A DNA stretch of 64,000 nucleotides, taken from contig CALWYP010000038.1 in assembly GCA_944385795.1 (NCBI GenBank), positions 5,774-69,773 of the forward strand, read 5' to 3'. A program made the position numbers and the translations under genes. Source of the stretch: an uncultured Oscillospiraceae bacterium (GTDB lineage Bacteria > Bacillota > Clostridia > Oscillospirales > Oscillospiraceae). Under the pieces are notes generated by a model, which was not told the origin of the DNA, did not search any database, and saw nothing but the letters and a program-made list of their open reading frames with translations. This document shows positions 5,449 to 46,286 of this stretch, piece after piece. How positions within the stretch are numbered: the stretch's first letter is position 1; every line of letters starts with the position of its first letter.

Positions 5449-8364
5449 TCATTCCGCGCCGCGCCGCCGTGCCCCCGCTGCGGAGCTTGCGGTACTGTCC
5501 TCCGGATGGCGTTCGGCATACAGCCTCAGCAATTCCCGCTGGCGCTTTGCGGCGATGGCCGCGTTGTGCCATTTACCGTAGTTGTACTCCTCAAGGCAGG
5601 GCTCCGCCGCGGTTTCCTGTATTCTTCTGGATGCAATAACGTATTCAAGCCGCTTTTCATCCGCGTTGCCAAGCTCTTCTTCGCACGACAGATATAGCTC
5701 CAGCTGTTCGCTTACGTCATACTCGTAGGAGAAATCCCGGAGCCGGCGGAGCAGCATCGCGGCCGCCTTTTCCAGAGCCTCGCGCGACAATTCCGCGTCC
5801 GGGATATTCCGCGCCAGGGCGCGGTACAGCCTGGCTTTCGCGCAGATTTCGCTCTCGTCCAGCCAGGCGTAGGCGAGCGTGCGCTCGCTCTCATCACAGG
5901 CCGCCATATCCGCGCCCAGGCGTCCCAGGCACCAGTTTTTGAGCTCTTCGAGGTGTTCCCGTCCCTCTTCCGGCCCGTTCCGCAGGCGGAAGCTCAGGGA
6001 CGAGAGCATATAGGCGAGCTGCACGGCGCGCCGTCCGGGCTCGAGGGAGCCGAGCAGGCCGCGTATCCCGCCGTTATCCATGCGCCCGCCGGCGGCGAGG
6101 CTGAAGAGCCATCTCGAGCCGAGCAGCCGGACGAAGACGGACTCCGCGCGGGAGGCGGACGCATATAGCGCTTCGTCGAAATCCGAGAAAAGCATGGCCG
6201 CGGCGAGGATGTCGAACATGAGCGGGGAGCGGATTTCATCCAGCAATTTGACGAAGCCCTCGGGATCGAGCGAGAGCATCAGCCGGTAGCCGGAGCTCAA
6301 CCACGCGCCGCCGGGATAGCAGACGTGCCCGGCGTAGTCGTAAAGGAGACGGAAACCAATCACGGAGGGCTTGGCCTCGCCTTTGAGCAGCTTGCGAAGC
6401 TCGAACGTGTCTGAATTCAGCCCCCCGTCCGCGAAGCCTATGCCGGCCTCGCGCGCCCTGGCAATCTCAGCGAACCCGGCGGCGATTTCCCCTGCCGGCA
6501 CGAGGCCGTTTCCGCGGACCGCCTCTTCAAAAACGCCGTGAAGGGTGCAGATCATCTCCGAAGCGAACTCGGCCAGGGCGCGGCAGGCGGCGCCCTTGTC
6601 CCCGTCCCAGTGGCTCAGGATTATGGCGACGGCGCCCTCCAGCTCCGTTTCGCCGACGTCCAGCCGCCCGTTTTCACCGTAATAAGCGGAGAGCCAGCCG
6701 GATTCCCTCAATACGCCGCGCTCGGGCTCAGGGCGCGGCGCTTCCGCGGCGGAGTCGTACAGCACCTCGCAGGTGATCTGGCCGGGCTTTTTCGACCCTG
6801 GTTTAGCGCCGCCGCAGAGACCGCGCAGGTAATCCAATACCTCAAGGCAGACCTCGCGCCCGAGCGGGGCCATGGTGAATGGCTGCCTCGCGCCCATCGA
6901 ATTGAGGGAGTTGCTCATGAGGAAGCCGTCGGCGGAGCCGTCCTTGAAGCGGCGTATGAGGAAGCGGTCGTGAAAAACCTGCGCGTTCCCCCGCCTGAGG
7001 TCGCGTATCCTGAGGTTCTTATGAAGGATGGCGGCGTTGCCGGCGGTGAAACGCCTGACGCCCTCCCTTATCTTCTCGTATTCCACGCTGGAGCCGGTGT
7101 CCGGGTCCATGCCGCCGAGGCTGGAGAGTATCTCGAGCCGTATCTCCGGATGTTCTATGCGGCTGAGCAGCTTGATCGCGGACTCGGCGGAGAAGTACGG
7201 GTCGGCGATTATAACCTTGCTTACGGAGCCGAGGTCTATGTACTCCTTTACCTTCAGGAAGCTGTCGATCTCGCCTCCAACGCCGCCGCCGGGAACAAAA
7301 GCGCCGCGGCTTTCGCCGTCTCTATAGGGCCGCGTGAGCGCGTCTCCCGCGCGCATGGCCGCGTCTATTTCGCCCAGCGCGGGGCTTCTTATTTCGCTCC
7401 TGACGCCGCTGTGGGCGCGGCTCACGCTTTCGACGCTGCGCTTTATCTCGTCCGCCATGCCGGGGGCGGACTTGCGGAGCTTTTTAGTCCAGGGGTCGGA
7501 AAGCCCGAGGCCGGGCTCCATAAGGCTGCCGTTGAGGCTGATGGACATCACCATGGTCATATCGTATCTGTACACCAGCTCCGAGCTCTCCGCGTCCCAG
7601 ATTTGGACGGAAATGCGGCTCATTGGCTCCGCGGCGGTGAAGCGCGCCGACCCTTCCTCCGGCATGAGCAGCTTGCAGCGGTTTATTATAACGCGGCCGC
7701 AGTGCTCGGCGAGGCAGTTCACGATAAGCGGGCGCGGGCAGGGGGCGAGGCGCTTTACCTCGGCCGTTTTCAGCGGCCGCCGGTTGTCGACTTCAACGGC
7801 GAAGCCATCCGGCATCGCCAGCGGCTCAAAGCTCTCGAAGTTGCCCAGCCTGTGGCCGTCCTTGAGCAAATCGACGCCGCTCTCCTCTCTGACCCAGCCG
7901 AAGAGGGCGCGCGCGCCGCGGTACCTTGCGGCTTCGCCGCCGCAGTCCAGGCTGCTTAGGACCTCGTTGAAAAGGCTGTTCTTGTCCAGGCTCCAGAGCT
8001 CCCTGAGCCTTGAACAGCGTTCGAGCGGCCCGCTCTCGCCGGACAGGCTGCCGGCGGAGAAAACCTCCATGCGCGGCGTGAGGCGCGGCGAAGGCAGAGA
8101 GATTTTGCCGCAGCTTATGCGCCCCGGTTCGGTGAGGGCTTTCTCAAAAGCGCCGGCCTCGGCGGCGGACATGATCGCCCGGCATACCGCCCTTCCGTGG
8201 TCTGTGTCGCAGCGCCAGCGCATAGGTTCCCGCCCCGTCCGGGCGCTGAAGCCGTATATGAGCAGATATTCCGCGCCGGCCTTGTGCAGCAGCAGCTTTA
8301 TGAACCTGTTCGTTCCGTCCAAAAACATCCCCTCCAATTTGAGCGCTCGCTTTTTATACAGCAT
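5449..8364 (-). CDS. Large orphan protein (~970 aa) with a central PLD-like (HxR...SxN, MIT_C-like) motif and a helical C-terminal half; function unknown
   Basis: Long minus-strand ORF with normal amino-acid composition. The track start (8481) is probably too far upstream. Candidate starts are ATG 8364 and ATG 8328 (the latter directly preceded by GGAGGGG). Motifs: IIADPYF ... VFHDRFLIRRF(x9)LMSNSLNSMG, with the His codon at 6970..6972. Confidence 0.6.
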   Translation of the reverse strand: MLYKKRALKLEGMFLDGTNRFIKLLLHKAGAEYLLIYGFSARTGREPMRWRCDTDHGRAVCRAIMSAAEAGAFEKALTEPGRISCGKISLPSPRLTPRMEVFSAGSLSGESGPLERCSRLRELWSLDKNSLFNEVLSSLDCGGEAARYRGARALFGWVREESGVDLLKDGHRLGNFESFEPLAMPDGFAVEVDNRRPLKTAEVKRLAPCPRPLIVNCLAEHCGRVIINRCKLLMPEEGSARFTAAEPMSRISVQIWDAESSELVYRYDMTMVMSISLNGSLMEPGLGLSDPWTKKLRKSAPGMADEIKRSVESVSRAHSGVRSEIRSPALGEIDAAMRAGDALTRPYRDGESRGAFVPGGGVGGEIDSFLKVKEYIDLGSVSKVIIADPYFSAESAIKLLSRIEHPEIRLEILSSLGGMDPDTGSSVEYEKIREGVRRFTAGNAAILHKNLRIRDLRRGNAQVFHDRFLIRRFKDGSADGFLMSNSLNSMGARQPFTMAPLGREVCLEVLDYLRGLCGGAKPGSKKPGQITCEVLYDSAAEAPRPEPERGVLRESGWLSAYYGENGRLDVGETELEGAVAIILSHWDGDKGAACRALAEFASEMICTLHGVFEEAVRGNGLVPAGEIAAGFAEIARAREAGIGFADGGLNSDTFELRKLLKGEAKPSVIGFRLLYDYAGHVCYPGGAWLSSGYRLMLSLDPEGFVKLLDEIRSPLMFDILAAAMLFSDFDEALYASASRAESVFVRLLGSRWLFSLAAGGRMDNGGIRGLLGSLEPGRRAVQLAYMLSSLSFRLRNGPEEGREHLEELKNWCLGRLGADMAACDESERTLAYAWLDESEICAKARLYRALARNIPDAELSREALEKAAAMLLRRLRDFSYEYDVSEQLELYLSCEEELGNADEKRLEYVIASRRIQETAAEPCLEEYNYGKWHNAAIAAKRQRELLRLYAERHPEDSTASSAAGARRRGAE

Positions 8365-32199: not shown

Positions 32200-33600
32200 G
32201 TGATGCTCATGCCCTATAAGTACTATGGCGGTGTTCACCCGGACTACGCTAAGACCGCTGCGAAGACACCCGTGCGGCCTATAGCCCCGCCGAAGCAGGT
32301 CGTCATACCGATGGTACAGCACATCGGCGCGCCTGACCATCCCACAGTTAAGGTGGGGGATACCGTGACAGTGGGACAGGTGATCGGCACGAACGACGCC
32401 CCGGTTTCCGCCCCGATACACGCGACGGTCTCCGGCACGGTCGTGGCTGTCGAGCCCAGGCGGCACATGCTGGGCGACATGGTTATGTCCGTCGTGATCG
32501 ACAACGACTTCAAGGACACGCCCTGCGAAGATATGAAGCCCCTCACAGGGGACGAGCTCGAGGATCCCGAGGCCATAATCAGGCGCATCCGTGAGGCCGG
32601 CGTCGTCGGCATGGGCGGGGCGATGTTCCCGACCGCGTTCAAAATCCAGGGCGCCGCCGGCAAGGTGGACACGCTTATCATCAACGGCGCCGAGTGCGAG
32701 CCCTATCTCTGCGGCGACCACCGCACTATGCTCGAGCACCCCGAGGAGCTGCTCAAGGGCATAGAGCTTGTGCGCATAGCCCACGGGCTGGACAAGTGCT
32801 ACTACGGCATCGAGAAGAACAAGCAGGACGCCATAGACCTGCTCACGGGCCTCGACCCGGCCAAGTACGGCGTGGAGATAGTCCCCGAGGCGGTCAAGTA
32901 CCCCCAGGGCGCCGAGAAAATGCAGGTCAAGGCCAACACCAACCGCGAGGTCAAGCCCGGCGGGCTGCCGAGCGGCGTCGGCGCGAACGTCGTCTCCACC
33001 TACACGGCCTACACGGTTTACCGCGCCTGCTACGAGGGCGTCCCCTCCATTGAGCGCGTGGTCACCGTCGCGGGCGACTGCGTCAGCGAGGCGCAGAACC
33101 TGCTCGTGCGCTTCGGCACCCCGCTGGAGCACATCTTCGCCGAGGCGGGCGCGGATATGGACCGCGTCGAGCGCATCTGCATGGGCGGACCCATGATGGG
33201 CATCTGCGTGGCCGACCCCTCCGCCGGCTCCGTCAAGGGCGCGAGCGGCCTGCTGCTCTTCAGCCGCGACATGAACCGGGAGAGCGAGACGCCGACCTGC
33301 ATCCGCTGCGGCAACTGCGTCGCGCACTGCCCCATGAAGCTCGAACCCATTTACATGTATATGTATGTGAACCAGGGCGACATAAGGAAGATGGAGGAGT
33401 ACCACGTCATGGACTGCTTTGAATGTGGCTCCTGCTCCTACGGCTGCCCCGGCCGCCTGTCCCTGACGCACACCTTCAAGGTCGGCCAGGCCATGATAAC
33501 CGCCCACCGCGCCGAGGAGCGCGCCAAGGCGGAGGCCGCGAAGATCAACGCCGCCGCTGCCGCCAAGGCGCAGGACGGCGGAAAGGAGGCCCGCGCGTAA
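32200..33600 (+). CDS. rnfC: Rnf electron-transport complex subunit C
   Basis: Two ferredoxin motifs, CIRCGNCVAHCP and CFECGSCSYGCP. GMGGAMFPT nucleotide/FMN region. First gene of the rnfCDGEAB order. ATG 32209 is an alternative start. Confidence 0.9.
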   Translation: MMLMPYKYYGGVHPDYAKTAAKTPVRPIAPPKQVVIPMVQHIGAPDHPTVKVGDTVTVGQVIGTNDAPVSAPIHATVSGTVVAVEPRRHMLGDMVMSVVIDNDFKDTPCEDMKPLTGDELEDPEAIIRRIREAGVVGMGGAMFPTAFKIQGAAGKVDTLIINGAECEPYLCGDHRTMLEHPEELLKGIELVRIAHGLDKCYYGIEKNKQDAIDLLTGLDPAKYGVEIVPEAVKYPQGAEKMQVKANTNREVKPGGLPSGVGANVVSTYTAYTVYRACYEGVPSIERVVTVAGDCVSEAQNLLVRFGTPLEHIFAEAGADMDRVERICMGGPMMGICVADPSAGSVKGASGLLLFSRDMNRESETPTCIRCGNCVAHCPMKLEPIYMYMYVNQGDIRKMEEYHVMDCFECGSCSYGCPGRLSLTHTFKVGQAMITAHRAEERAKAEAAKINAAAAAKAQDGGKEARA

Positions 33601-34634
33601 TGGAAGAGAAGAGGCTCTTTAAAGTTACATCCAACCCCATACTCAGGACGCCGCGTGACACCTCCAGGATAATGCTCGACGTCATTATCGGCCTTGTCCC
33701 CGCCCTGGCCGTGGGCATCTGGCAGTTCGGCGTGAACGCCGCCGTGCTGCTCGCCGTCAACATAGCCGCCTGCGTGTTCTTCGAGTGGATATACCGCAAG
33801 CTCATGAAGAAGAACTGCGCCGTGGGCGACCTCTCCGCCGTCGTCACCGGCATACTGCTCACCTGCGTCATGCCGTCCAACGCCCCCTGGTGGGTCGGCC
33901 TCATAGGCTGCTTCTTCGGGATAGTGGTAGTCAAGCAGCTCTACGGCGGCATAGGCAAGAACTTCCTGAACCCCGCCCTGGCGGCCCGCGCCTTCCTCTC
34001 GGCCGCCTACGCCGTGTTCATGACGAGCTGGGCCGTCCCCGCCGCGATGAGCGGCTTTGTGGACGCCGCCACCATGGCCACCCCGCTCTCCTACCTGCAC
34101 AACGGCGACGCCCTGCCCGAGTACTTCACCTACGCCAACATGTTCCTCGGCGGCATCCCGGGCAGCATAGGCGAGACGAGCGCCCTCGCCATCCTCATCG
34201 GCGGCGCGTGGCTGCTCCTCCGCAAAGTCATAAACTGGCGCATCCCCGTGAGCTTCATCGGCTCCGTCGCCGTTCTGACCCTTATCTTCGGCTGCGAGGG
34301 CTACGGCAATGTTGAGTGGATGCTCTACAACGTCCTCTCCGGCGGCCTCATGCTCGGCGCCTTCTTCATGGCGACCGACTACTCCACCAGCCCCGTCAAC
34401 CTCAAGGGCCAGCTGCTCTACGGCGTGGGCTGCGGCGCGATAACCGTGCTGATACGCTACTTCGGCTCCTATCCCGAGGGCGTCAGCTACGCCATCCTCA
34501 TCATGAACTGCTGCACCTGGGCCATAGACCGCGCGCTCAGGCCGCGCCAGTTCGGCGTCACCGCCGAGGATGTCAAGGCCAGGAAGGCCGCGGCCAAGGA
34601 GGCCAAGAAAAATGCGAAGGAGGGCGCTGCGTAA
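33600..34634 (+). CDS. rnfD: Rnf complex subunit D
   Basis: Polytopic membrane protein. The start overlaps the rnfC stop (TAATG). The track ORF 33423 carries an Arg/Pro/Gly-rich, non-protein-like N-terminal extension. FMN attachment region LMLGAFFMATDYSTSP. Confidence 0.9.
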   Translation: MEEKRLFKVTSNPILRTPRDTSRIMLDVIIGLVPALAVGIWQFGVNAAVLLAVNIAACVFFEWIYRKLMKKNCAVGDLSAVVTGILLTCVMPSNAPWWVGLIGCFFGIVVVKQLYGGIGKNFLNPALAARAFLSAAYAVFMTSWAVPAAMSGFVDAATMATPLSYLHNGDALPEYFTYANMFLGGIPGSIGETSALAILIGGAWLLLRKVINWRIPVSFIGSVAVLTLIFGCEGYGNVEWMLYNVLSGGLMLGAFFMATDYSTSPVNLKGQLLYGVGCGAITVLIRYFGSYPEGVSYAILIMNCCTWAIDRALRPRQFGVTAEDVKARKAAAKEAKKNAKEGAA

Positions 34635-35191
34635 TGACCGAAACCGCTAAGAAGCGCGGCATGAACCCCATCGTCCGTCTCGCGCTGATACTTTTCGCCG
34701 TGTCCGCCATAACGAGCGGCGTGCTCGGCGTCGTAAACGGCTTTACCGCCGACAGGATAGCCGAGCAGCAAAGGCTCAAGACCGAAGCCGCCTATAACGC
34801 CGTGCTGCCCAGCGAGAGCGGCTATACCGAGGCCGCCTTCGACGCCGAGGCCTTCCCGACCGTCAACACCGTTTCCGCCGCCGGCAACGCCGGCTGGGTC
34901 GTCGAGCTCACCTTCTCCGGCGCCCAGAGCTCCATAACCGCCGCCTTCGGCGTGAGCGCAGAGGACTACACGATAACCGGCGCGAGCGTGATCGACCACG
35001 CCGAGACGAGCGGGCTTGGCGCCAAGATAACCGAGCCCGATTTCCTCGGCTCTTTCACCGGCCAGTCCGAGGGCATGGCCGTCACCAAGGACGGCGGCAC
35101 GGTGGACTCCATCACCGCCGCGACCATATCCTCCAGGGCCATGGCCAACGCGGCCAACACCGCCATCGCCGTCTGCGAGTCGCTGGGTTAA
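34634..35191 (+). CDS. rnfG: Rnf complex subunit G
   Basis: Single N-terminal TM segment and an FMN-binding motif near the C-terminus (DSITAATISSRA). TAATG overlap with rnfD. Confidence 0.85.
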   Translation: MTETAKKRGMNPIVRLALILFAVSAITSGVLGVVNGFTADRIAEQQRLKTEAAYNAVLPSESGYTEAAFDAEAFPTVNTVSAAGNAGWVVELTFSGAQSSITAAFGVSAEDYTITGASVIDHAETSGLGAKITEPDFLGSFTGQSEGMAVTKDGGTVDSITAATISSRAMANAANTAIAVCESLG

Positions 35192-35205
35192 AGGAGGGGC
35201 GCTAA

Positions 35206-35931
35206 ATGAGTATAAAGCAACAGTTCAAGGAAGGCCTCATCACCAGTAACCCCGTCCTGGTGCAGCGTATCGGCATGTGCTCCACAATGGCCATCACGAC
35301 CACGCTGTTCAACGGCATAGGCATGGGCCTGTCCGTCCTCATCATCCTCACCTGCTGCAACGTGGCCATCTCCGCGCTGCGCAAGGCCATCCCGAACGAC
35401 ATCCGCCTGGCCATCTTCGTCGTGGTCATCGCCGGCTTCGTCACCATAGTCGACCTGCTGCTGCAGGCCTTCATACCCGCGCTGAGCGCCTCGCTCGGCG
35501 TCTTCATCCCGCTTATCGTCGTCAACTGCATCATCATCGGCCGCGCGGAGGCCTTCTGCCAGCACGAGCCCGTCGGCCCCAGCTTCTGGGACGGTATCTT
35601 CCAGGGCTTCGGCTACACCGTCGTCCTCGTTTGCATGTGCCTCATCCGCGAGCTGCTCGGCTCCGGCACCTTCGGCACGGGCATTTTCGAGATAGTCAAC
35701 GGAGCGCTTAGCGTCTCCTTCGACGGCTCCGCCGCCGGCATCCGCATCTTCCCCGAACAGTTCGGCGCTACGATACTTATCATGCCCTTCGGCGGCTTCC
35801 TCACGCTCGCCTCCCTGCTCGCGCTCATGCAGTACGCCCTGCGCAAGAGCGCCGAGAAGAAGGAGAAGGCCGCGCGCGCCGCGAAGGTAGAAATCCCGGC
35901 TCCCGCCGAAGCAAAGGAGGCTGCTGAGTAA
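35206..35931 (+). CDS. rnfE: Rnf complex subunit E
   Basis: Membrane protein homologous in layout to the following RnfA. N-terminal NPVLVQRIGMCSTMA block. Confidence 0.85.
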   Translation: MSIKQQFKEGLITSNPVLVQRIGMCSTMAITTTLFNGIGMGLSVLIILTCCNVAISALRKAIPNDIRLAIFVVVIAGFVTIVDLLLQAFIPALSASLGVFIPLIVVNCIIIGRAEAFCQHEPVGPSFWDGIFQGFGYTVVLVCMCLIRELLGSGTFGTGIFEIVNGALSVSFDGSAAGIRIFPEQFGATILIMPFGGFLTLASLLALMQYALRKSAEKKEKAARAAKVEIPAPAEAKEAAE

Positions 35932-36512
35932 TGGGTATGAACATCCTTACAATCTCGCTCGGCGCGATTTTGATGAACAACTTCATCTTCTCGCAGTTCC
36001 TGGGCTGCTGCCCCTTCCTCGGCTGCTCCACGAAGGTGGACACCGCCGTCGGCATGGGCATCGCCGTCACCTTCGTCATGGGGCTCTCGAGCGCGATATG
36101 CTACGCGGTAAACCAGCTGCTCGTAATGCTCGGCCTGGGCTATATGAGCACCCTCGCGTTCATCCTCGTCATCGCCGTGCTGGTGCAGTTCGTCGAGATG
36201 TTCCTCAAGAAGAGCATCCCCAGCCTCTACACCGCGCTCGGCATCTACCTGCCGCTCATCACCACCAACTGCGCCGTCCTCGGCGTCGTGCTGCTGAACG
36301 TGCAGAACAACTACAACTTCATTGAGAGCGTCGTATACGGCGTCACCGGCGGCCTGGGCTTCATGCTCGCCATAGTCCTGTTCGCCACCGTCCGCGACCG
36401 CCTCCAGTTTGCCGACTATCCCGAGAGCTTCGAGGGCTTCCCCATAGCGCTGACCACGGCCGGCCTGCTGGCCCTGGCCTTCATGGGCTTCTCCGGCATG
36501 AGCATAGCGTAA
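35931..36512 (+). CDS. rnfA: Rnf complex subunit A
   Basis: 193-aa membrane protein with NNFIFSQFLGCCPFLG and PLITTNCAVLG blocks. The start overlaps the rnfE stop. Confidence 0.85.
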   Translation: MGMNILTISLGAILMNNFIFSQFLGCCPFLGCSTKVDTAVGMGIAVTFVMGLSSAICYAVNQLLVMLGLGYMSTLAFILVIAVLVQFVEMFLKKSIPSLYTALGIYLPLITTNCAVLGVVLLNVQNNYNFIESVVYGVTGGLGFMLAIVLFATVRDRLQFADYPESFEGFPIALTTAGLLALAFMGFSGMSIA

Positions 36513-36525
36513 GGAGGCCTGAGCC

Positions 36526-37344
36526 ATGGATATTATGAACATAGTTTACGCCATACTCGTGCTCGGCGTCATGGGCGCCATCTTCGGCGGCCTGCTCGCC
36601 TTTGCGGCGAAGATATTCTACGTCGAGCAGGATGAGCGCATCACCCAGGTGCGCGAGTGCCTGGCCGGCGCGAACTGCGGCGGCTGCGGCTTCGCCGGCT
36701 GCGACGCCTACGCCGCGGCGGTGGTCGCGGGCGAAGCGCCCCCCAACAAGTGCGGCCCCGGCGGCAAGAAGGCCGCGGAAGCCGTCGCGGCCATCATGGG
36801 CCTCGACGCCGGCGCGGAGGTCAAGTATGTCGCCTACGTCCCCTGCTCCGGCAGCTGCGGCACGGCCAAGGACTTCTTCGAGTACGAGGGCCCGGCCGAC
36901 TGCGTCGCCGCGATGCGCTTCGGCAACAGGGGCCCCAAGGCCTGCCAGTTTTCCTGCATCGGCCTCGGCACCTGCGTAAAGGCCTGCCAGTTCGGCGCGA
37001 TGCGCATTGAAAACGGCGTGGCCGTCGTGGACCGCGAGAAATGCACCTCCTGCATGGCCTGCGCCAGCGCCTGCCCCAAGGGCATCATCCAGAAGGTCCC
37101 CTACGAGCAGCGCGTGCTTGTCGGCTGCCGCTCCAACGACAAGGGCGCCCAGACGCGCAAGCTCTGCGACGCCGGCTGCATCGGCTGCATGAAGTGCCAG
37201 CGCGAGTGCCCGCACGAGGCGATAAAGGTCGTCAACAACCTCGCCGAGATCGACTACGCCAAGTGCGTAGGCTGCGGCCGCTGCGCCGAGGTCTGCCCGA
37301 GGCATATAATCCACCCGCAGAAGGTCTACGTCCAGGATAATTGA
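36526..37344 (+). CDS. rnfB: Rnf complex subunit B (polyferredoxin)
   Basis: N-terminal TM segment, then CGGCGFAGC and several CxxCxxCxxxCP motifs. Confidence 0.9.
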   Translation: MDIMNIVYAILVLGVMGAIFGGLLAFAAKIFYVEQDERITQVRECLAGANCGGCGFAGCDAYAAAVVAGEAPPNKCGPGGKKAAEAVAAIMGLDAGAEVKYVAYVPCSGSCGTAKDFFEYEGPADCVAAMRFGNRGPKACQFSCIGLGTCVKACQFGAMRIENGVAVVDREKCTSCMACASACPKGIIQKVPYEQRVLVGCRSNDKGAQTRKLCDAGCIGCMKCQRECPHEAIKVVNNLAEIDYAKCVGCGRCAEVCPRHIIHPQKVYVQDN

Positions 37345-38999: not shown

Positions 39000-40037
39000 T
39001 TATACCACGGCGACCCTGGCCGCGGTTATATCGCCGACAGTGCGGCAGCCGGTCAGGACCATGAGGTTTTCAAGCTCGGCGCGCTTGGCGGAGGCGTACA
39101 TGGCGACGCCCTCCGCGCCGCCTTCAAGGGCGCTCCCGCCCGTGGCCGCCACGACGAAGGGGCGGCCGATCATGGCCGCGTCCGCGCCGAGGGCCAGGAC
39201 CTTGAAGATGTCCGCCCCGGTGCGTATGCCACCGTCGACGATGATGGTGAGCGCGTCCCCTACGGCGCGGCGTATCTCCGGCAGCACCTGGGCCGTGGCC
39301 TGGGCGGAGGGGAGCACGCGCCCGCCGTGAGTGGAGACTACTATGCCGCCGCAGCCAGCCTCGGCGCACTTCACCGCGCCCTCGGCGGTCATCACGCCCT
39401 TGGCGATGAAGGGTATGGGCAGGGCGGAGCAGATTTCGCGCAGGTCGGCGGCGGATTTCGGGGCCAGGAGGCTCACGGAATCGCCCATATTGGCGAAGGC
39501 CGCCGCGTCTATGTCGCAGGCGAGGGCGGGGGCCCCGGCCGCGGCGCACTCGAGGCCGCGGGAGATTATCTTGCCGTTGTCGCGCCAGGGCTTGAGCGTG
39601 CAGACGTTTATGCCGCCGTTGGCCTTCGCGGCCTTCAGCCCGAGCTCGTACTGGTCGCTGAGGGCGTTGTCGCCCGTGAAGGGCAGCACGCCGGCCATGC
39701 GGGAACCGGCCACGGCCGCGTCGGACCAGTACCCGTCGCTGATGGCGCCGTTATAGTTGTAGTTCATGCCGCCTATGGGCGCGAGGCAGAGCGGCAGGGA
39801 GAGCCTGACGCCGAAGAGCTCCGTGGAGGCGTCGGGCTGCCAGGGCTCGTGCACGGTGTCCATGCGTATCTTGACGCGGCTGAGGAATTCGGTGCAGGCT
39901 GTCCAGCTCGAGCCGTCCCCCGCGGCGCCCACGCCGGGCATTTCGCCCCGGCAGGCGCGGCCGTTGCACTCCGGGCAAGCGCGGCAGTTCGGGGCCATGA
40001 GCTCCCGGGCCTTTTCCCATATCTCGTTCAAATTCAT
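39000..40037 (-). CDS. FMN-dependent alpha-hydroxy-acid-oxidising family enzyme (TIM barrel) with an N-terminal four-Cys motif
   Basis: IVVSTHGGR and DGGIRTGADIFKVLALGADAAMIGRP blocks typical of the family. N-terminal CRACPECNGRAC. Confidence 0.7.
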   Translation of the reverse strand: MNLNEIWEKARELMAPNCRACPECNGRACRGEMPGVGAAGDGSSWTACTEFLSRVKIRMDTVHEPWQPDASTELFGVRLSLPLCLAPIGGMNYNYNGAISDGYWSDAAVAGSRMAGVLPFTGDNALSDQYELGLKAAKANGGINVCTLKPWRDNGKIISRGLECAAAGAPALACDIDAAAFANMGDSVSLLAPKSAADLREICSALPIPFIAKGVMTAEGAVKCAEAGCGGIVVSTHGGRVLPSAQATAQVLPEIRRAVGDALTIIVDGGIRTGADIFKVLALGADAAMIGRPFVVAATGGSALEGGAEGVAMYASAKRAELENLMVLTGCRTVGDITAARVAVV

Positions 40038-40122: not shown

Positions 40123-40163
40123 GAAAAAAGTGAAGCGCCGAGGCGGGAGGGCCCGCCTCGGCG
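40123..40163 (-). terminator. Rho-independent terminator after the vWA gene
   Basis: Minus strand GCGCCGAGGCGGG-CCCT-CCCGCCTCGGCGC followed by TTCACTTTTTT. Confidence 0.75.
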
Positions 40164-40192: not shown

Positions 40193-41914
40193 TCACATCG
40201 AGCCTATGAGCTCGACTATAACCTTGCCGACGGCGTCGGCGAACTGGCTTATGGAGCGGATGCGGACGAGCTCCCGGCCGTAGATGCGCCTCGCGTTGGG
40301 CAGGTCGGCCTCCTCGCCGGTGAAGACGCACATGACGCTCACGCCCATGCGGCGCAGGCGCTCGACCTCGGCGGAGGAGTCCGCCACGCCGAGCTCGCTC
40401 TGGTAGCCCTTCATATGCCCGTCGGCGTCCGGTATGCGCTTGACGTCGTTCGGGCTGCAGTCCGAGAGGGTTATGAGCAGACGGCGCTCGTAGTGCGTGC
40501 CGCTCAGCAGGTAGTTGGCCGCGCGCAGGGCCAGGCCGTCGCGGTTGAAGCCGGCGGCGGAGTAGCTGAAGACCGCGGCGTTCCTGTCCGTCTCCTCATA
40601 GTCGCGGTAGACGCGCAGCACGGTGCAGTTGCCCAGCGAGCAGAAGCTGGATACGCGCACGGGCACGCCGCAGCGCGTCAGGCTCTCGGCCAGTATAAAG
40701 GCCTGCGCCGCCACCTTCTCCTGGCGCTGGAGCTGGCTGGCCGAGCCGTCCAGCAGCACGTCGACGGAGAGCTCCGTGTCCGTGGTACGCTCGTGCTTTA
40801 CGAAGACGCGCCCGTCGTTCAGGTAGACCCCGCGCCAGAGGGCGGGGACGTTGAGCTGGCCGGCGCGGGACTTTATCATGGAGTCGTCCAGATGTACGAG
40901 GATACAGTTCTTGACCTTCTCGGTCAGGCGGATTATGGCCAGCTTGTGCGCGATTATGCCGTCCTCGTAATACTTGAGGTTCGCGCCGCGCTGCTCGCCC
41001 GCCGCCTTGCGGTGGATCAGCACCTCGCCGTCGCGCACTTCGCCGGGGGGCAGGTCGCCGCGCGTGAAGTGCAGCATACAGCCGGCGTGCTTATCGCGGC
41101 AGAGCCTCTGCTCGATGTCGCCCGTCTCGCGCGGGGAGAACATGCTCTCGCCAAAGCAGTCGGCGACGTAGCGGCGCAGCTCCTGCGGCGACTTCGCGCC
41201 GGTTATGCGGTCCATAGCGCCGGCCTTCGCCTTCTTGCGCTTGACCTCCTTGGAGCTGACGCGCGCGCCGAGGTTGTAGCGGCGGCGGCCCAGGCCGCCC
41301 ATGAACTGCGGCAGCTTGGCCAGGCTCTCGCGCCGGAGCATACCGCCGGTGACGCCGAAATAGTCCTTGAGTATATCCTTCATGCGCTCGACAAGCTGCT
41401 CGCTCGTGAGCTCGGGCGGGAACTCCAGGGCGGAGAGTATCTTCTCCTCACGCGGCGGGAGGGAATGCCTGTCGCCCAGCGCGCGGCGGTAGTGCTCGAG
41501 CTTGATCCTGTCGTATATGGGCAGGTCCAGGTCGTTCCAGCCCTCAGCCTGCGCCTCGACGGAGCGGGCGTAGCCGCGCCTGAGCAGCCGCAGCGCCGGG
41601 CGGTCGGCCACGGCGCGCAGGTAAGCGCAGTTCTCCAGGCCCGTCCAGAACAGGTCCTGATAGGCCTCGCCGTTCGGCGCGTTTTCCATCGCGTCGAGCA
41701 GGCGCTTTATGACGTCGTAGTCGTAATACTTGTACACGGCGCCCACGATGCTGTTCATATACACGTCGGCGTAGCCGGCCGCGTCGTAGGCGCGGGAGGT
41801 CGGGCGCAGGCCGTAGTCGCCGGCGGCGTTCCAGATCAGGTTCGTCGCGCGCCGCTCCTGCTGCTCCTGCTCGCGCTCGCTGAGCTCCTCGGGGGCCTTC
41901 CTCAGCGCGCACAT
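40193..41914 (-). CDS. von Willebrand factor A (vWA) domain protein, NorD/CbbO/CobT-like partner of a MoxR ATPase
   Basis: C-terminal vWA domain with MIDAS motif VLLDGSASQ. The long N-terminal region has no recognised motifs. The start lies 2 nt after the ATPase stop. Confidence 0.75.
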   Translation of the reverse strand: MCALRKAPEELSEREQEQQERRATNLIWNAAGDYGLRPTSRAYDAAGYADVYMNSIVGAVYKYYDYDVIKRLLDAMENAPNGEAYQDLFWTGLENCAYLRAVADRPALRLLRRGYARSVEAQAEGWNDLDLPIYDRIKLEHYRRALGDRHSLPPREEKILSALEFPPELTSEQLVERMKDILKDYFGVTGGMLRRESLAKLPQFMGGLGRRRYNLGARVSSKEVKRKKAKAGAMDRITGAKSPQELRRYVADCFGESMFSPRETGDIEQRLCRDKHAGCMLHFTRGDLPPGEVRDGEVLIHRKAAGEQRGANLKYYEDGIIAHKLAIIRLTEKVKNCILVHLDDSMIKSRAGQLNVPALWRGVYLNDGRVFVKHERTTDTELSVDVLLDGSASQLQRQEKVAAQAFILAESLTRCGVPVRVSSFCSLGNCTVLRVYRDYEETDRNAAVFSYSAAGFNRDGLALRAANYLLSGTHYERRLLITLSDCSPNDVKRIPDADGHMKGYQSELGVADSSAEVERLRRMGVSVMCVFTGEEADLPNARRIYGRELVRIRSISQFADAVGKVIVELIGSM

Positions 41915-41915
41915 A

Positions 41916-42830
41916 TCAATCGAAGAGCCCGCCGCGCCCGAGGTCGGCAGGTATGCGCGAGGTGACGACGTCCTCGACGAGCTTGCGCTCGAAGGGGTCG
42001 AAGGCCTTGTTTATGATGCCCATGCGCAGCGCCTCCACGGCGTTCAGGCCGCGGGCCATGAGGTCGACGGCCGCCATCAGGCCGCGCAGGTCCAGGGCCT
42101 TCGTGGAGATCTCCGCGCTGTCCACCTTGCGGCGCAGGTCGCTGTAGAGGCCAGTGAACTGGTCGGCCCACTCGTCCTTGAGCTCCGGATGCTCGCGCTT
42201 GAGGAGCTTTTTGAGGTTTTCCGCCGTGATCGGCGGCATCTCTATCACGACGAAGCGGCTCACCAGGGCCTCGTTCAGCTCGCGGGTGCCGGCGTAGCCG
42301 TAGTTCATGGTGCCTATAAAGCGCGCCGCGCCGTCCATCTGTATGCGGTCGTAGCCGGGCACGTCTATTACGCGGCGGAAGTCCAGCGTGGCGTGCAGCA
42401 CGGCCAGGGATTCGTTCTTGGCCATGTTTATCTCGTCGAGGATACCGAAGCCGCCCAGCGTGGCGCACTGGGTTATCGGGCCCGGGCGGAAGCTCACCTC
42501 GCCGTCCTTGAACGTGTCCGTGCCTATGAGCGAGGCCGCGCCGGTGTTGATGTAGAAGCTCACGTCCCAGCTCGGCCGGCCGAAGGCGGCCGCGAGGTTC
42601 TCCGCAAGCACGTTCTTACCCGTGGCCTTGGGGCCGACGAGCAGCAGGTTCTCGCCGCAGAGCAGGGCGGTCGCCGCGGCCTCCCATATCTCCTTGCCGT
42701 AATAGTCGAAGCGCGGCTTGTCCAGAAGCCTGCGCCCCGCCTCGGCGGAGACGGGATGCGCCGCGCGGAACTCCTCTATGGCCGAAATTATACCCGGATC
42801 TATGCCTTCCTGTCGCAGAAAGTCAAGCAT
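41916..42830 (-). CDS. MoxR-class AAA+ ATPase (CbbQ/NorQ/NirQ-like)
   Basis: Walker A LLLVGPKATGKN, Walker B GILDEINMA, and a sensor region. ATG 42830 follows GGAGG by 7 nt. The track start 42917 lacks an RBS. Confidence 0.8.
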   Translation of the reverse strand: MLDFLRQEGIDPGIISAIEEFRAAHPVSAEAGRRLLDKPRFDYYGKEIWEAAATALLCGENLLLVGPKATGKNVLAENLAAAFGRPSWDVSFYINTGAASLIGTDTFKDGEVSFRPGPITQCATLGGFGILDEINMAKNESLAVLHATLDFRRVIDVPGYDRIQMDGAARFIGTMNYGYAGTRELNEALVSRFVVIEMPPITAENLKKLLKREHPELKDEWADQFTGLYSDLRRKVDSAEISTKALDLRGLMAAVDLMARGLNAVEALRMGIINKAFDPFERKLVEDVVTSRIPADLGRGGLFD

Positions 42831-42953
42831 GCTGCTGCCTCCATTTGTCAGTCTTACGACGTTACGATTAAACGTTCGTTTATAAGACGATTCTATCACA
42901 TTTTTCCGATATGTCAAAAGTTTTCGCTGAGGGGCCGAAGCGCCGCAATTTGT

Positions 42954-43000
42954 TTGACTATACGGAAGTTATATGTTAAACTGTGAACGATGAATTCACA
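42954..43000 (+). promoter_or_regulatory. Promoter with an inverted repeat at the predicted transcription start, upstream of the Fe-S flavoprotein gene
   Basis: TTGACT (42954..42959), a 17-nt spacer, then TAAACT (42977..42982). Inverted repeat TGTGAA-N7-TTCACA at 42982..43000. Confidence 0.45.
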
Positions 43001-43137
43001 ATTTTCTACAAGCCCGGCCCGTGATTTGACCACGGAATTTGTAGAAAATGCGTTACCCGGCCCCTCCGGGCCGGAAGCGGAAGAGGGAAGATACGTCGAA
43101 AATTAATAAAATTCAAAGCGAAGGGGGAAAAGCCTAG

Positions 43138-45825
43138 ATGAGAAGCTCTATACTCAAGCTGGCCACTAAGATCAGCCTGGAGTGCGGCACCTACACCGGC
43201 GTCACGCCCAACGACCCCGAGTACAAGATACTCGACCCGGTTATAACCGACGAGATGGCGGAGATCGCCATGGGCCTCAAGGTGCGCAAGTACGTCAGCG
43301 CGGAACAGGTGGCGAAGAAGGTCAAGAAGCCTCTCGAGCGCTGCAAGGAAGTGCTCTACGAGCTGGCGGACATCGGACTGTGCCGCGTGAACCTCAAGGA
43401 CGGGGAGGACAAGTTTTTCCTGCCCATATGGGTGCCGGGCATCATGGAGATGATGGTCGGCAACAAGGAGCTGTGCGAGCGCTACCCCGTAATCGCGGAG
43501 TGCTTTGAGGAATACACGCGCCGGCGCATCGCGCCCCTCGCGCCCTTTATCCCCGTGGGGCAGGGCATGATGCGCGTCATCCCGGTGGAGATGGCGATAA
43601 AGAACGACACGCACAAGGGAAGCTACGAGGAGATACACGAGATTGTGGAGAACTCCTGGGCCATCGCCGTCACGGACTGCTCCTGCCGGCGCACGCGCCG
43701 CCTGATGGGCGAGGGCTGCGGCCACCTGGAGAAGGACGTCTGCATTTTCTTCAACGAGGGCGCGGAATACCATATCCGCACGGGCCACGGCCGCGAGATA
43801 GACAAGGCGGAGTGCTATGAGATACTCAAGCGCTGCGAGGAAAACGGCCTTGTCCACGAGATATCGAACCTCGACCCGCCCAACGGCGCGGCGGCCATAT
43901 GCAACTGCTGCGGCTGCTCTTGCTTCTCCCTGCGCATAGCCGAGTACCTGAAGACCCCGGACGTCATCCGCTCCAACTACGTCGCCGAGGTCGACCCGGC
44001 CAAGTGCGTCGCCTGCGGGCTGTGCGTGGAGAACTGCAACCTCGGCGCGCTCAAGCTCGGCCAGAAGCTCTGCGGCACGCCGACGCAGCCGCCCGAGCAC
44101 GCCACGCCTCACGACAAGCTGCTCTGGTTCGGCGAGGACAACTACGACAAGTATTACCGCACCAACCGCGGCTACACCGCCGAGGGCGGCACCGCCCCGT
44201 GCAAGACGCGCTGCCCGGCGCATATCCCCGTGCAGGGCTACATAAAGCTCGCCAGCCAGGGCAAGTTTGACGAGGCCCTGGAGCTGATACGCAAGGAGAA
44301 CCCCTTCCCGGCGGTCTGCGGCCGCGTCTGCCCGCGCTTCTGCGAGGAGGCCTGCTCCCGCGGCGGGGTCGACGCGCCCGTGGCCATAGACGAGGTCAAG
44401 AAGTTCCTCGCCCAGCGCGAGCTCTCGCCGGAGACGCGGCGCGTGCCCAAGATGCTGAATATGACAGGCAAGCCCTTCACGAACAAGATCGCCGTCGTGG
44501 GCTCCGGCCCGGCCGGCATGAGCTGCGCGTATTACCTCGCGCTCAAGGGTTACCCCGTCACCGTGTTTGAGAAGCAGAAGAGCGTGGGCGGCATGCTGAT
44601 GAACGGCATACCCAGCTTCCGCCTGGAGAAGGACGTCGTCGCCGCCGAGATAGACATACTCCGCGAGCTCGGCGTGGAGTTCAAGACCGGCGTGGAGGTC
44701 GGCAAGGACGTCACGCTCGCCGGGCTCAGGAGCCAGGGCTACGAGGCCTTCTTCCTCGCCATAGGCGCGTCCAAGGCGGCCGCGCTGAACATCCCCGGTG
44801 AGAAATACCGCGGCGTCATAAGCGGGCTCGACCTGCTCCGCCGCGCGGAGGGCCCCCGCCCGCCCGTCATGAACGGGCACACCGTGGTAATAGGCGGCGG
44901 CAACGTGGCCATCGACGCGGCGCGCACGGCGCTGCGCCTGGGCGCCCAGGACGTCACCGTGGTCTACCGCCGCGGCCGCGAGGACATGCCCGCCGACAGC
45001 GAGGAGGTCGCCGAGGCCGAGGCCGAGGGCGTCAGGTTCAGGTTCCTGGCCAGCCCCCTGCGCATAAAGGGCAGCGACGGCAAGGCCGTGGAGCTGGAGG
45101 TCCAGCTCATGGCCCAGGGCGAGGCCGACGGCGCGGGCAGACACAAGTGCGTGCCCATAGAGGGGGCCACGGAGCTCATCCCCGCCGGGACGGTCATAGC
45201 CGCCATAGGCCAGAAAATCGACTGGGGCGGGCTGCTCGAGGGCAGCCGCGTCCAGCTGCGCCGCTCCGGCGCGGCGGAGGCCGACCGCGTCACGCTCCAG
45301 ACCATGGAGAGCGACGTCTTCGTGGGCGGCGACGCGCGCACGGGCCCGAGCTTCGTCATCGACGCCATCGCCGAGGGCAAGGAGGCCGCCGAGAGCATAC
45401 ACCGCTTCGTGCAGCCCGGCCAGAGCCTGACGATAGGCCGCCGCGTGAAGGATTACGCCGAGCTCGACAGGTCCGAGGCGGACCTCTCCGGCTACGACCG
45501 CGCCCCGAGGGAGCACGCCGCCGCAGCGGACCCGGAAAAGGCGCGCGGGACCTTCCGCGACCTGCGCGGGACCTTCACCGCCGAACAGGTGCTGCGCGAG
45601 ACGGAGCGCTGCCTCGGCTGCGGCGCGACGGTCGTCGACCAGAGCGCCTGCGTCGGCTGCGGCGTCTGCACCACCAAGTGCCAATTCGACGCCATACGCC
45701 TCGTGCGCGTCACGGACAACTCCGGCAAGGTCTACGAAAAGCTCATGCCCGAGAGCGGCAAAAACGTCGTGCGCCGCGTAAAGGAGATAGCCGTCAAGCG
45801 CGTCTCCCGCCCGCGCGGGAAGTGA
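43138..45825 (+). CDS. Multidomain Fe-S flavoprotein: Cys-rich N-terminal domain, ferredoxin domain, GltD-like NAD(P)H/FAD oxidoreductase and C-terminal ferredoxin
   Basis: Cys motifs CSCRRTRRLMGEGCG ... CNCCGCSC. CVACGLCVENC. GltD-type CKTRCPAHIPVQGYI ... CGRVCPRFCEEAC. Rossmann motifs KIAVVGSGPAGMSCAYYL and VVIGGGNVAIDAA. C-terminal CLGCG ... CVGCGVCTTKC. Confidence 0.75.
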   Translation: MRSSILKLATKISLECGTYTGVTPNDPEYKILDPVITDEMAEIAMGLKVRKYVSAEQVAKKVKKPLERCKEVLYELADIGLCRVNLKDGEDKFFLPIWVPGIMEMMVGNKELCERYPVIAECFEEYTRRRIAPLAPFIPVGQGMMRVIPVEMAIKNDTHKGSYEEIHEIVENSWAIAVTDCSCRRTRRLMGEGCGHLEKDVCIFFNEGAEYHIRTGHGREIDKAECYEILKRCEENGLVHEISNLDPPNGAAAICNCCGCSCFSLRIAEYLKTPDVIRSNYVAEVDPAKCVACGLCVENCNLGALKLGQKLCGTPTQPPEHATPHDKLLWFGEDNYDKYYRTNRGYTAEGGTAPCKTRCPAHIPVQGYIKLASQGKFDEALELIRKENPFPAVCGRVCPRFCEEACSRGGVDAPVAIDEVKKFLAQRELSPETRRVPKMLNMTGKPFTNKIAVVGSGPAGMSCAYYLALKGYPVTVFEKQKSVGGMLMNGIPSFRLEKDVVAAEIDILRELGVEFKTGVEVGKDVTLAGLRSQGYEAFFLAIGASKAAALNIPGEKYRGVISGLDLLRRAEGPRPPVMNGHTVVIGGGNVAIDAARTALRLGAQDVTVVYRRGREDMPADSEEVAEAEAEGVRFRFLASPLRIKGSDGKAVELEVQLMAQGEADGAGRHKCVPIEGATELIPAGTVIAAIGQKIDWGGLLEGSRVQLRRSGAAEADRVTLQTMESDVFVGGDARTGPSFVIDAIAEGKEAAESIHRFVQPGQSLTIGRRVKDYAELDRSEADLSGYDRAPREHAAAADPEKARGTFRDLRGTFTAEQVLRETERCLGCGATVVDQSACVGCGVCTTKCQFDAIRLVRVTDNSGKVYEKLMPESGKNVVRRVKEIAVKRVSRPRGK

Positions 45826-45826
45826 T

Positions 45827-46171
45827 ATGCACGAGATGAGCCTGGCCATTCAGGCCATTCGCAGCGTGCTCAGCTTCGCCGAGGAGAACGGCATAGGCGA
45901 GATTGACACAGTGGTGCTCGAGATAGGCGAGCTCAGCCTGGTCGTGCCCGAGTATATGGAGGAGGCCTGGAAGGCCGCCTGTATGCGCACGCCCCTCGCG
46001 CGCGCGAAGCTGCAAATTGACATATGCCCCGGCAACGGCGTCTGCCAGGACTGCGGCAAGGTCTACAACATTGTCGCAAACAAGGGCGTCTGCCCCGCCT
46101 GCGGCAGCCGGGACAAGGAGATACTCTCGGGACGGGAGTTCAATATCAAGGAACTGCTCGTCCCGGAGTAA
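45827..46171 (+). CDS. hypA: HypA-type nickel metallochaperone
   Basis: N-terminal MHE Ni-binding motif and a zinc site CQDCG ... CPACG. 114 aa. The start lies 1 nt after the upstream stop (TGAtATG). Confidence 0.85.
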   Translation: MHEMSLAIQAIRSVLSFAEENGIGEIDTVVLEIGELSLVVPEYMEEAWKAACMRTPLARAKLQIDICPGNGVCQDCGKVYNIVANKGVCPACGSRDKEILSGREFNIKELLVPE

Positions 46172-46286
46172 ACGGAAGCGGCGGGCCCGGAAAACCGGGC
46201 CCGCCAAAAAAATTCGGGAATAGGGAAAATAACTCTTGCAATCCATTGAAACATGTGCTAGTATATAAAGGCTCGATACGAGACAT

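Follow-up and report, generated by a model that had tools for sequence, protein, structure and literature searches.

In this study, we analysed a stretch of 64,000 nucleotides (the window) from an uncultured animal-gut bacterium of the Oscillospiraceae, positions 5,774 to 69,773 of contig CALWYP010000038.1 (assembly GCA_944385795.1). The source genome belongs to Candidatus (Ca.) Scatomorpha and is a metagenome-assembled genome of 1.84 Mb that is 87% complete. Two pairs of genes lie back to back in the window: a gene for a large iron-sulfur (Fe-S) flavoprotein is followed by hypA on the plus strand, and genes for an AAA+ ATPase and a von Willebrand factor type A (vWA) protein form an operon on the minus strand. 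We consider it likely that the plus-strand unit encodes a reductase of the IsrA type (clade 9) together with a dedicated HypA, and that the AAA+/vWA pair is a mere neighbour. IsrA is the putative isoprene reductase of Acetobacterium wieringae ISORED-2, a protein of 901 aa (Kronen et al. 2023, mSystems 8:e00119-23, PMC10134865). All four open reading frames (ORFs) were found where a preliminary description of this DNA had placed them. Its account of the four-gene layout, the DGSAS motif of the metal ion-dependent adhesion site (MIDAS), the terminator behind the vWA gene, the shared region of about 300 nt, the 1-nt gap before hypA and the cysteine motifs was borne out. The genes and the region between them are as follows.

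40193-41914, minus strand: gene of the NorD-like vWA protein, 573 aa, MIDAS motif DGSAS
41916-42830, minus strand: gene of the NorQ/CbbQ-like AAA_5 ATPase, 304 aa from the likely ATG
42831-43137, no strand: divergent control region of 307 nt; hypB occupies this place in relatives
43138-45825, plus strand: isrA-like gene of the Fe-S flavoprotein, 895 aa
45827-46171, plus strand: hypA, encoding a 114-aa nickel metallochaperone (PF01155)

Domain architecture of the flavoprotein

Pfam matches of the flavoprotein comprise Fer4_20 (residues 352-428), Pyr_redox_2 (450-747) and Fer4 (about 282-300 and 832-854). According to Pfam and NCBIfam, residues from about 350 to 760 represent a module of the NfnB/GltD type (Fer4_20 plus Pyr_redox_2). 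For residues 1-280 no significant Pfam family was found, the only match being a sub-threshold one to TrmB. The N-terminal domain harbors the motifs CSC and CNCCGCSC and is followed by a ferredoxin motif (C290/293/296/300), and a further ferredoxin (C825-C848) is located at the C-terminus. Six cysteines of the N-terminal domain, C181, C183, C202, C255, C257 and C262 (Cys6), are invariant in an alignment of 33 full-length homologs and nearly invariant in 36 sequences of the domain that include stand-alone forms; an alignment of eight sequences is consistent with this. C258 and C260 of CNCCGCSC are not conserved, and one lineage of the genus (clade C, see below) reads CNCTLGSC or CNCAVGVC at this place. 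The CGC within CNCCGCSC was considered as a nickel site like that of acetyl-CoA synthase and was rejected as a family feature, since clade C has other residues in place of both C258 and C260.

An AF2 model of the flavoprotein, computed with the 33 homologs as input, reached a predicted local distance difference test (pLDDT) value of 90.1 and a predicted template modelling score (pTM) of 0.90. In Foldseek searches, the part from about residue 350 to 860 matched NfnABC-A, StnC, NfnB, GltD and DPD with E-values from 1e-48 to 1e-30; the best values were E 1.5e-48 for 9bov_A and a template modelling score (TMt) of 0.78 for 5jca_L. A winged-helix domain is present at residues 10-138 approximately (structure matches with Z about 7). 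The Cys6 part of a model of residues 1-345 (pLDDT 76.7) gave no Foldseek or VIA-align match, and this part was barely probed, such that neither a new nor a known fold is shown. The N-terminal domain also occurs alone, in '4Fe-4S binding proteins' of about 360-400 aa. The number of relatives found exceeds 7,400, and nearly all of the 120 listed ones have the same architecture.

This architecture corresponds to that described for IsrA, in which approximately 270 aa at the N-terminus form an unassigned domain, Fe-S motifs occupy residues 289-300 and 848-877, and the families PF14691 and PF07992 are present (PMC10134865). For IsrA, a Cys6 'cluster V' with the CxC motifs C180/C182 and C254/C256 was described, and the authors propose it to be a nickel site (PMC10134865). 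All sequence-level features of IsrA are present in the window protein, with an offset of one residue (C181/C183 and C255/C257). Full-length clade 9 homologs were reported from Firmicutes, Spirochaetes, Chloroflexi and other phyla (PMC10134865). Thus, the window protein is a further member of a published, still hypothetical family. Its substrate is very probably not isoprene. No gene for an NfnA or GltB partner was found nearby among the Pfam-scanned window neighbours, and with its extra domains and no such partner gene the protein does not fit a small subunit of Nfn or glutamate synthase.

Linkage of hypA to isrA

A gap of 1 nt separates hypA from the TGA of the flavoprotein gene, and the translation of hypA is probably coupled to that of this gene. 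The hypA product matches PF01155 over the full length (105.5 bits, cut-off 28.9) and possesses the MHE N-terminus and the zinc site CxxC-x12-CxxC, formed by C73xxC76 and C89xxC92; the score for the equivalog TIGR00100 is 83.1 and lies just under the cut-off of 88.1. Three hypA genes are present in the source genome, namely that of the window and one each on contigs C107 and C89 (C, G and L numbers are our labels for contigs of the source genome, genomes of the genus and fetched loci). At C107:31046-34280, a second isrA-like gene (897 aa, 58% identical) is divergent from the second hypA (50% identical). The third hypA directly follows the large-subunit gene of a membrane-bound group-4 [NiFe]-hydrogenase of the Mrp/Mbh type, ahead of an MnhE-like gene (C89:14-8102). 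Neighbours of the isrA-hypA pair on C107 are genes for TelA, a TPM-domain protein, EamA and UvrB, with no AAA+/vWA pair among them.

As the genome encodes a group-4 [NiFe]-hydrogenase, while hypF, hypC and hypD (on C33) and hypB are scattered on other contigs, the hypA of the window might be a displaced gene of hydrogenase maturation that came to lie beside the flavoprotein gene by chance. We regard this as extremely improbable. The hydrogenase large-subunit gene has its own hypA directly behind it, two of the three hypA genes adjoin isrA paralogs in a linkage that is conserved across phyla, and the window HypA shares no more than 31% identity with its hydrogenase-linked counterpart in this genome. 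The preliminary description had named a canonical hydrogenase cluster lacking its own hypA as the case in which the gene would merely be displaced, and this case does not apply. Searches of the genome for hyp genes and nickel enzymes, which it had suggested, returned three hypA, one hypB, hypFCD, the group-4 [NiFe]-hydrogenase and one LarA-like gene; no CODH/HCP (carbon monoxide dehydrogenase/hybrid cluster protein) and no urease were found in the genome at its completeness of 87%.

Within the genus, the protein with the Cys6-bearing N-terminal domain was detected in 23 of 24 further Ca. Scatomorpha genomes. It falls into three lineages, A (71-94% identity), B (51-58%) and C (38-42%). As judged from the coordinates of the hypA matches and from tblastn on fetched loci, a hypA lies within 3 kb of almost all isrA copies of the three clades where the contig suffices. 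The orientation differs between the clades: hypA is co-directional and downstream in clade A, mostly divergent and upstream in clade B, and downstream in clade C. In 16 other families of the order the flavoprotein was not found, and in most of these genomes neither hypA nor hypB was found. A scan of species-representative genomes yielded 80 distant isrA loci, with hosts among Oscillospiraceae, Clostridium, Caloramator, Alkaliphilus, Sporomusa, Lachnospiraceae, Treponema and other Spirochaetota, Leptolinea, Syntrophaceae and others. Fifty-seven of these copies have a flank of at least 2.5 kb on each side, and within 2.5 kb of them hypA was found for 44, hypB for 28, both for 24 and neither for 9. 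These counts reproduce the published frequencies of 0.73 for hypA and 0.56 for hypB in the vicinity of 988 IsrA homologs (PMC10134865). Cultured strains that possess the canonical hypB-isrA-hypA order include Lawsonibacter faecis NSJ-52 (L112), Ruminiclostridium cellobioparum DSM 1351 (L128), Anaerosporobacter mobilis DSM 15930 (L094) and Sporomusa rhizae DSM 16652 (L089). Therefore, the association of hypA with a non-hydrogenase redox enzyme that had been noted for the window is conserved: it holds for three clades within the genus as well as for 44 of 57 distant copies. It was already contained in PMC10134865.

The HypA proteins follow their flavoproteins. All 73 isrA-linked HypAs that were compared keep the (M)HE N-terminus and the two CxxC motifs. 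In a phylogenetic tree they group by the clade of the accompanying flavoprotein, with SH-aLRT support of 99 for A and C each, and the window HypA is placed within the clade of HypAs linked to clade-A isrA (SH-aLRT 99). The branch that leads to the hydrogenase HypA of the source genome has a length of 2.45 substitutions per site; this HypA is the single hydrogenase-type sequence in the tree, from which the monophyly of the linked HypAs cannot be read.

Relocation of hypB and the question of nickel

The clade-A cassette of those genus members whose loci were fetched reads hypB-isrA-hypA. At the locus of the source genome hypB is lacking, and 158 nt (42992-43149) stand in place of 954 nt of G011 that comprise hypB and its flanks (L048:8839-9792). 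The sole hypB of the source genome is located at C22:12416-13090, isolated near the end of the contig and next to a tRNA gene. The preliminary description had called the hypA of the window an orphan. It is correct that hypB is missing from the window locus, but the gene is no orphan in the wider sense, with hypB upstream in relatives and a single copy on another contig. Because relatives have hypB directly upstream and it was lost from the locus here, the orphan look of hypA is a local rearrangement. A HypB homolog was not found across the whole window with phmmer. Hydrogenase, CODH and urease were not found by Pfam in 24 genes between 30.2 and 59.4 kb, the other approximately 27 ORFs of the window being unscanned, and whole-genome searches put no gene of these three enzymes within the window; the absence of all four had been stated before and was confirmed. 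In G014 (L049:8188-9216), G007 and G019, a gene for an AlkZ-like DNA glycosylase is inserted between hypB and isrA.

In nearly all genomes of the genus hypB is a single-copy gene, and it is mostly located at the isrA locus and not at the hydrogenase. Proximity of hypB is frequent in the IsrA family and not obligatory, as the window locus illustrates. In Ca. Scatomorpha, isrA occurs in as many as three lineages, and each of them is accompanied by a hypA that has diverged along with it; a further hypA serves the group-4 [NiFe]-hydrogenase. One hypA per isrA paralog, a separate hydrogenase hypA and a sole hypB that mostly resides in the isr cassette suggest that the choice of client lies with HypA and that the Hyp nickel system has a main client in IsrA.

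HypA-like proteins might also serve IsrA-type enzymes without nickel, either as a structural zinc-ribbon subunit or by chaperoning a different metal or an Fe-S site, and the enzyme would then be an all-iron Fe-S flavoprotein. The literature holds no metal analysis for any member of the IsrA family, 16% of the distant isrA copies have neither hypA nor hypB nearby, and Kronen et al. liken the Cys6 site to P-cluster and double-cubane sites (PMC10134865). However, the nickel-binding MHE N-terminus is kept in 73 of 73 linked HypAs, and the gene of the nickel GTPase HypB is present at about half of the loci and in the genus accompanies isrA, not the hydrogenase. In addition, hypA and hypB of Pelotomaculum were jointly induced more than 300-fold along with isoprene reduction (2026 preprint). 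We therefore judge a role without nickel to be unlikely and favour an IsrA-type reductase that is served by HypA as a nickel chaperone. In two 2026 preprints on Pelotomaculum, the nickel dependence of the IsrA type is still treated as a hypothesis.

The AAA+/vWA operon

The AAA+ protein matches AAA_5 with 70.7 bits (Pfam) and aligns over its full length with NorQ (9qh4, E 6.6e-16) and with CbbQ. Its Walker A motif reads GPKATGKN and its Walker B motif ILDEIN. The Asn of Walker A replaces the Mg-binding Thr/Ser and is invariant in 68 metagenome homologs. The vWA gene follows at a distance of 1 nt. Its product gave a weak CobT_C/vWA match in Pfam, and the C-terminal vWA domain weakly resembles NorD (9qh6_G, E 0.003); for the N-terminal 370 aa no family match was found. 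PADLOC assigned the pair to no defence system.

NorQ/NorD, CbbQ/CbbO and CoxD/CoxE are precedents for AAA+/vWA pairs that act in metal insertion or enzyme remodelling. The pair of the window is divergent from the flavoprotein gene with a control region common to both, and the preliminary description had taken it and HypA as a hint of a maturation module. Accordingly, the NorQ/NorD-like pair and HypA might form a dedicated machine that inserts or remodels the metallocentre of the flavoprotein. Its distribution in the genus fits this idea in part: the pair stands head-to-head with hypB-isrA-hypA in at least 14 of 19 vWA-bearing genus genomes, an adjacency that was read from vWA and isrA coordinates, the contig ending before the AAA+ gene in a few genomes. 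A metagenome scan with the vWA alignment gave 80 loci; the 13 closest (at least 53% identity) are Scatomorpha-like, and in most of these hypB and/or isrA adjoin the pair where the contig suffices.

However, the linkage breaks down within the genus and beyond. Four Scatomorpha genomes (G004, G017, G018 and G020) encode isrA and gave no vWA match. The pair is located apart from isrA in G019, G021 and G010, and G015 has it without a clade-A isrA; its surroundings differ among these four genomes. The pair never accompanies isrA of clade B or C. Among the 80 distant isrA loci, none has a homolog of the AAA+ or the vWA protein within 10 kb (phmmer, E <= 1e-3). Conversely, 66 distant AAA+/vWA loci (38-43% identity) keep the two genes together, and isrA, hypA and hypB are absent within 8 kb of them. 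The published study mentions no MoxR, AAA or von Willebrand protein, and no such family is listed in its neighbourhood analysis (PMC10134865). A client gene shared by the distant pairs did not emerge either, as no neighbour family occurred in more than 12 of 67 distant loci (clustering, shadow ORFs removed). Since the distant isrA loci lack the pair, and the distant pair loci lack isrA and hyp genes and share no common neighbour, the AAA+/vWA operon is a self-contained two-gene cassette, and its adjacency to the isr cassette is synteny at the level of the genus. Thus, of the gene context that the preliminary description had expected to be conserved, the hypA linkage stood, whereas the MoxR-vWA linkage is confined to Ca. 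Scatomorpha and the pair has no place in a maturation module of the family. A dedicated insertion or remodelling machine is very unlikely.

Several points weigh against an IsrA-type reductase with its own HypA beside an independent AAA+/vWA cassette. The head-to-head arrangement in most vWA-bearing genomes of the genus, which might reflect a functional tie peculiar to this lineage, is one of them. No hypA adjoins the clade-A-like isrA of G004 and of G018, and 9 of 57 distant copies have neither hypA nor hypB within 2.5 kb; because of these copies, a dedicated HypA is not obligatory for isrA. As of the 2026 preprints no member of the IsrA family had been purified, and the link to isoprene comes from one Acetobacterium lineage and from proteomics only. 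Furthermore, the placement in clade 9 relies on the architecture and on shared relatives among Clostridia and Spirochaetota, and IsrA itself (VUZ27132.1) was compared by its published positions.

Proposed function

From the homology to NfnB and GltD and the proposal of Kronen et al. (2023), we infer an electron path, a nickel site and a class of substrate for the IsrA-type reductase. NAD(P)H would reduce the FAD of the GltD-like module. The electrons would then pass to four [4Fe-4S] clusters; two of these are predicted in Fer4_20, and the C-terminal and N-terminal ferredoxins are each predicted to contribute another. From there they would reach a fifth metal site at the six invariant cysteines of the N-terminal domain, where a hydrophobic substrate might be reduced. 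By analogy, this substrate could contain an unactivated or conjugated C=C bond. HypA, with its intact MHE site and its zinc ribbon, may deliver nickel to the Cys6 site, with the GTPase HypB as nickel donor. HypB would be shared. In the source genome its gene is present once and elsewhere, having left the ancestral hypB-isrA-hypA cassette.

It is tempting to speculate that Scatomorpha has recruited the AAA+/vWA pair as an ATP-driven remodeller, which opens the Cys6 site of clade-A IsrA for nickel insertion by HypA and HypB. Such a role would account for the retention of the head-to-head arrangement across most genomes of the genus. If true, it would provide the first client for a pair that is widespread in gut Clostridia and has an odd GKN Walker A motif; we give this idea little credence.

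If enzymes of the IsrA type carry nickel, they constitute a new class of nickel enzymes. They are common in gut and sediment anaerobes and may hydrogenate unactivated C=C bonds. The nickel hypothesis was already published. The present analysis corroborates it, removes the unsupported extension to MoxR/vWA proteins and adds a clean IsrA-type example from an animal-gut member of the Oscillospiraceae.

Regulatory elements and neighbouring genes

Further elements at the ends of the two units and in the divergent region are listed here.

40136-40163, minus strand: hairpin resembling an intrinsic terminator that closes the AAA+/vWA operon, 12-bp GC-rich stem and T-tract
42917-42890, minus strand: promoter-like site TTGACA-16-TGnTAGAAT, 11 of 12 matches, the best in the region
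42954-42982, plus strand: promoter-like site
42982-43000: inverted repeat TGTGAA-N7-TTCACA, abutting the -10 box of the plus-strand promoter-like site
46179-46206: GC-rich 12-bp hairpin, 8 nt past the hypA stop codon, T-tract on the minus strand only

For the AAA+ gene, the longest ORF opens at a TTG at 42917, and this same TTG is part of the -35 box of the minus-strand promoter-like site. Within the ORF, GGAGG precedes an ATG at 42830, which is the likely start as judged from these signals. Because the TTG belongs to the -35 hexamer and the ATG has its GGAGG, we take the AAA+ gene to extend from 42830 to 41916 (304 aa), with an intergenic region of 307 nt. The inverted repeat TGTGAA-N7-TTCACA was considered as a conserved operator. 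It is absent from the other 140 fetched loci, by which this role is ruled out, and it is probably specific to the rearranged, hypB-less promoter region of the source genome.

The neighbours in the window comprise rnf genes and genes for an energy-coupling factor (ECF) S-component, type III pantothenate kinase, an FMN-dependent dehydrogenase, VanZ, TrkAH, YmdB and SbcCD. The genes rnfC, G, E, A and B are located at 32200-37344 on the plus strand, about 6 kb upstream of the isrA locus, and rnfD is presumed in the gap at 33600-34316, where no gene was called. Synteny of rnf with the isr cassette was seen in close relatives only (L048 and L142). The Rnf complex could provide or use reduced ferredoxin of Fe-S flavoproteins. 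A gene for a protein like FMN-dependent alpha-hydroxy-acid dehydrogenases is located at 39000-40037 on the minus strand, just downstream of the vWA terminator. Such a gene adjoins the AAA+/vWA pair in G011, G023 and G013, and not in G014, G007, G019 and G021.

Comparison with known systems

The closest counterpart of the plus-strand unit is IsrA. Both proteins have about 900 aa, ferredoxin motifs near residues 290 and 840, Fer4_20 plus Pyr_redox_2, an adjacent hypA and a host among the anaerobic Firmicutes. The IsrA operon of Acetobacterium additionally contains hypB, a second hypA and a gene for a 350-aa ferredoxin with the N-terminal domain, whereas all three are missing from the operon of the window; close relatives of the window locus share the adjacent hypB with IsrA. 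The hosts differ as well, an animal-gut member of the Oscillospiraceae (Ca. Scatomorpha) here and an acetogen in the case of IsrA. With NfnB, NfnABC-A, StnC, GltD and DPD the flavoprotein has the central module in common, that is Fer4_20 with two [4Fe-4S] clusters and the FAD and NAD(P)H domains, at 27-42% identity. Compared with Nfn/GltD proteins of about 470 aa, it adds a Cys6-bearing N-terminal domain of 345 aa and a C-terminal ferredoxin part of about 130 aa. The HypA of the window shares PF01155, the MHE nickel site and the zinc Cys4 ribbon with the HypA/HybF proteins of [NiFe]-hydrogenase and urease maturation; in contrast to these, its client appears to be an Fe-S flavoprotein. The minus-strand operon resembles NorQ/NorD and CbbQ/CbbO in combining an AAA_5 ATPase of about 300 aa with a vWA/MIDAS partner of about 570 aa in a tight two-gene operon. 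Unlike in those systems, no gene for nitric oxide reductase (NOR), Rubisco or another conserved client lies near the pair of the window, and no nor or cbb genes were found among the scanned window neighbours.

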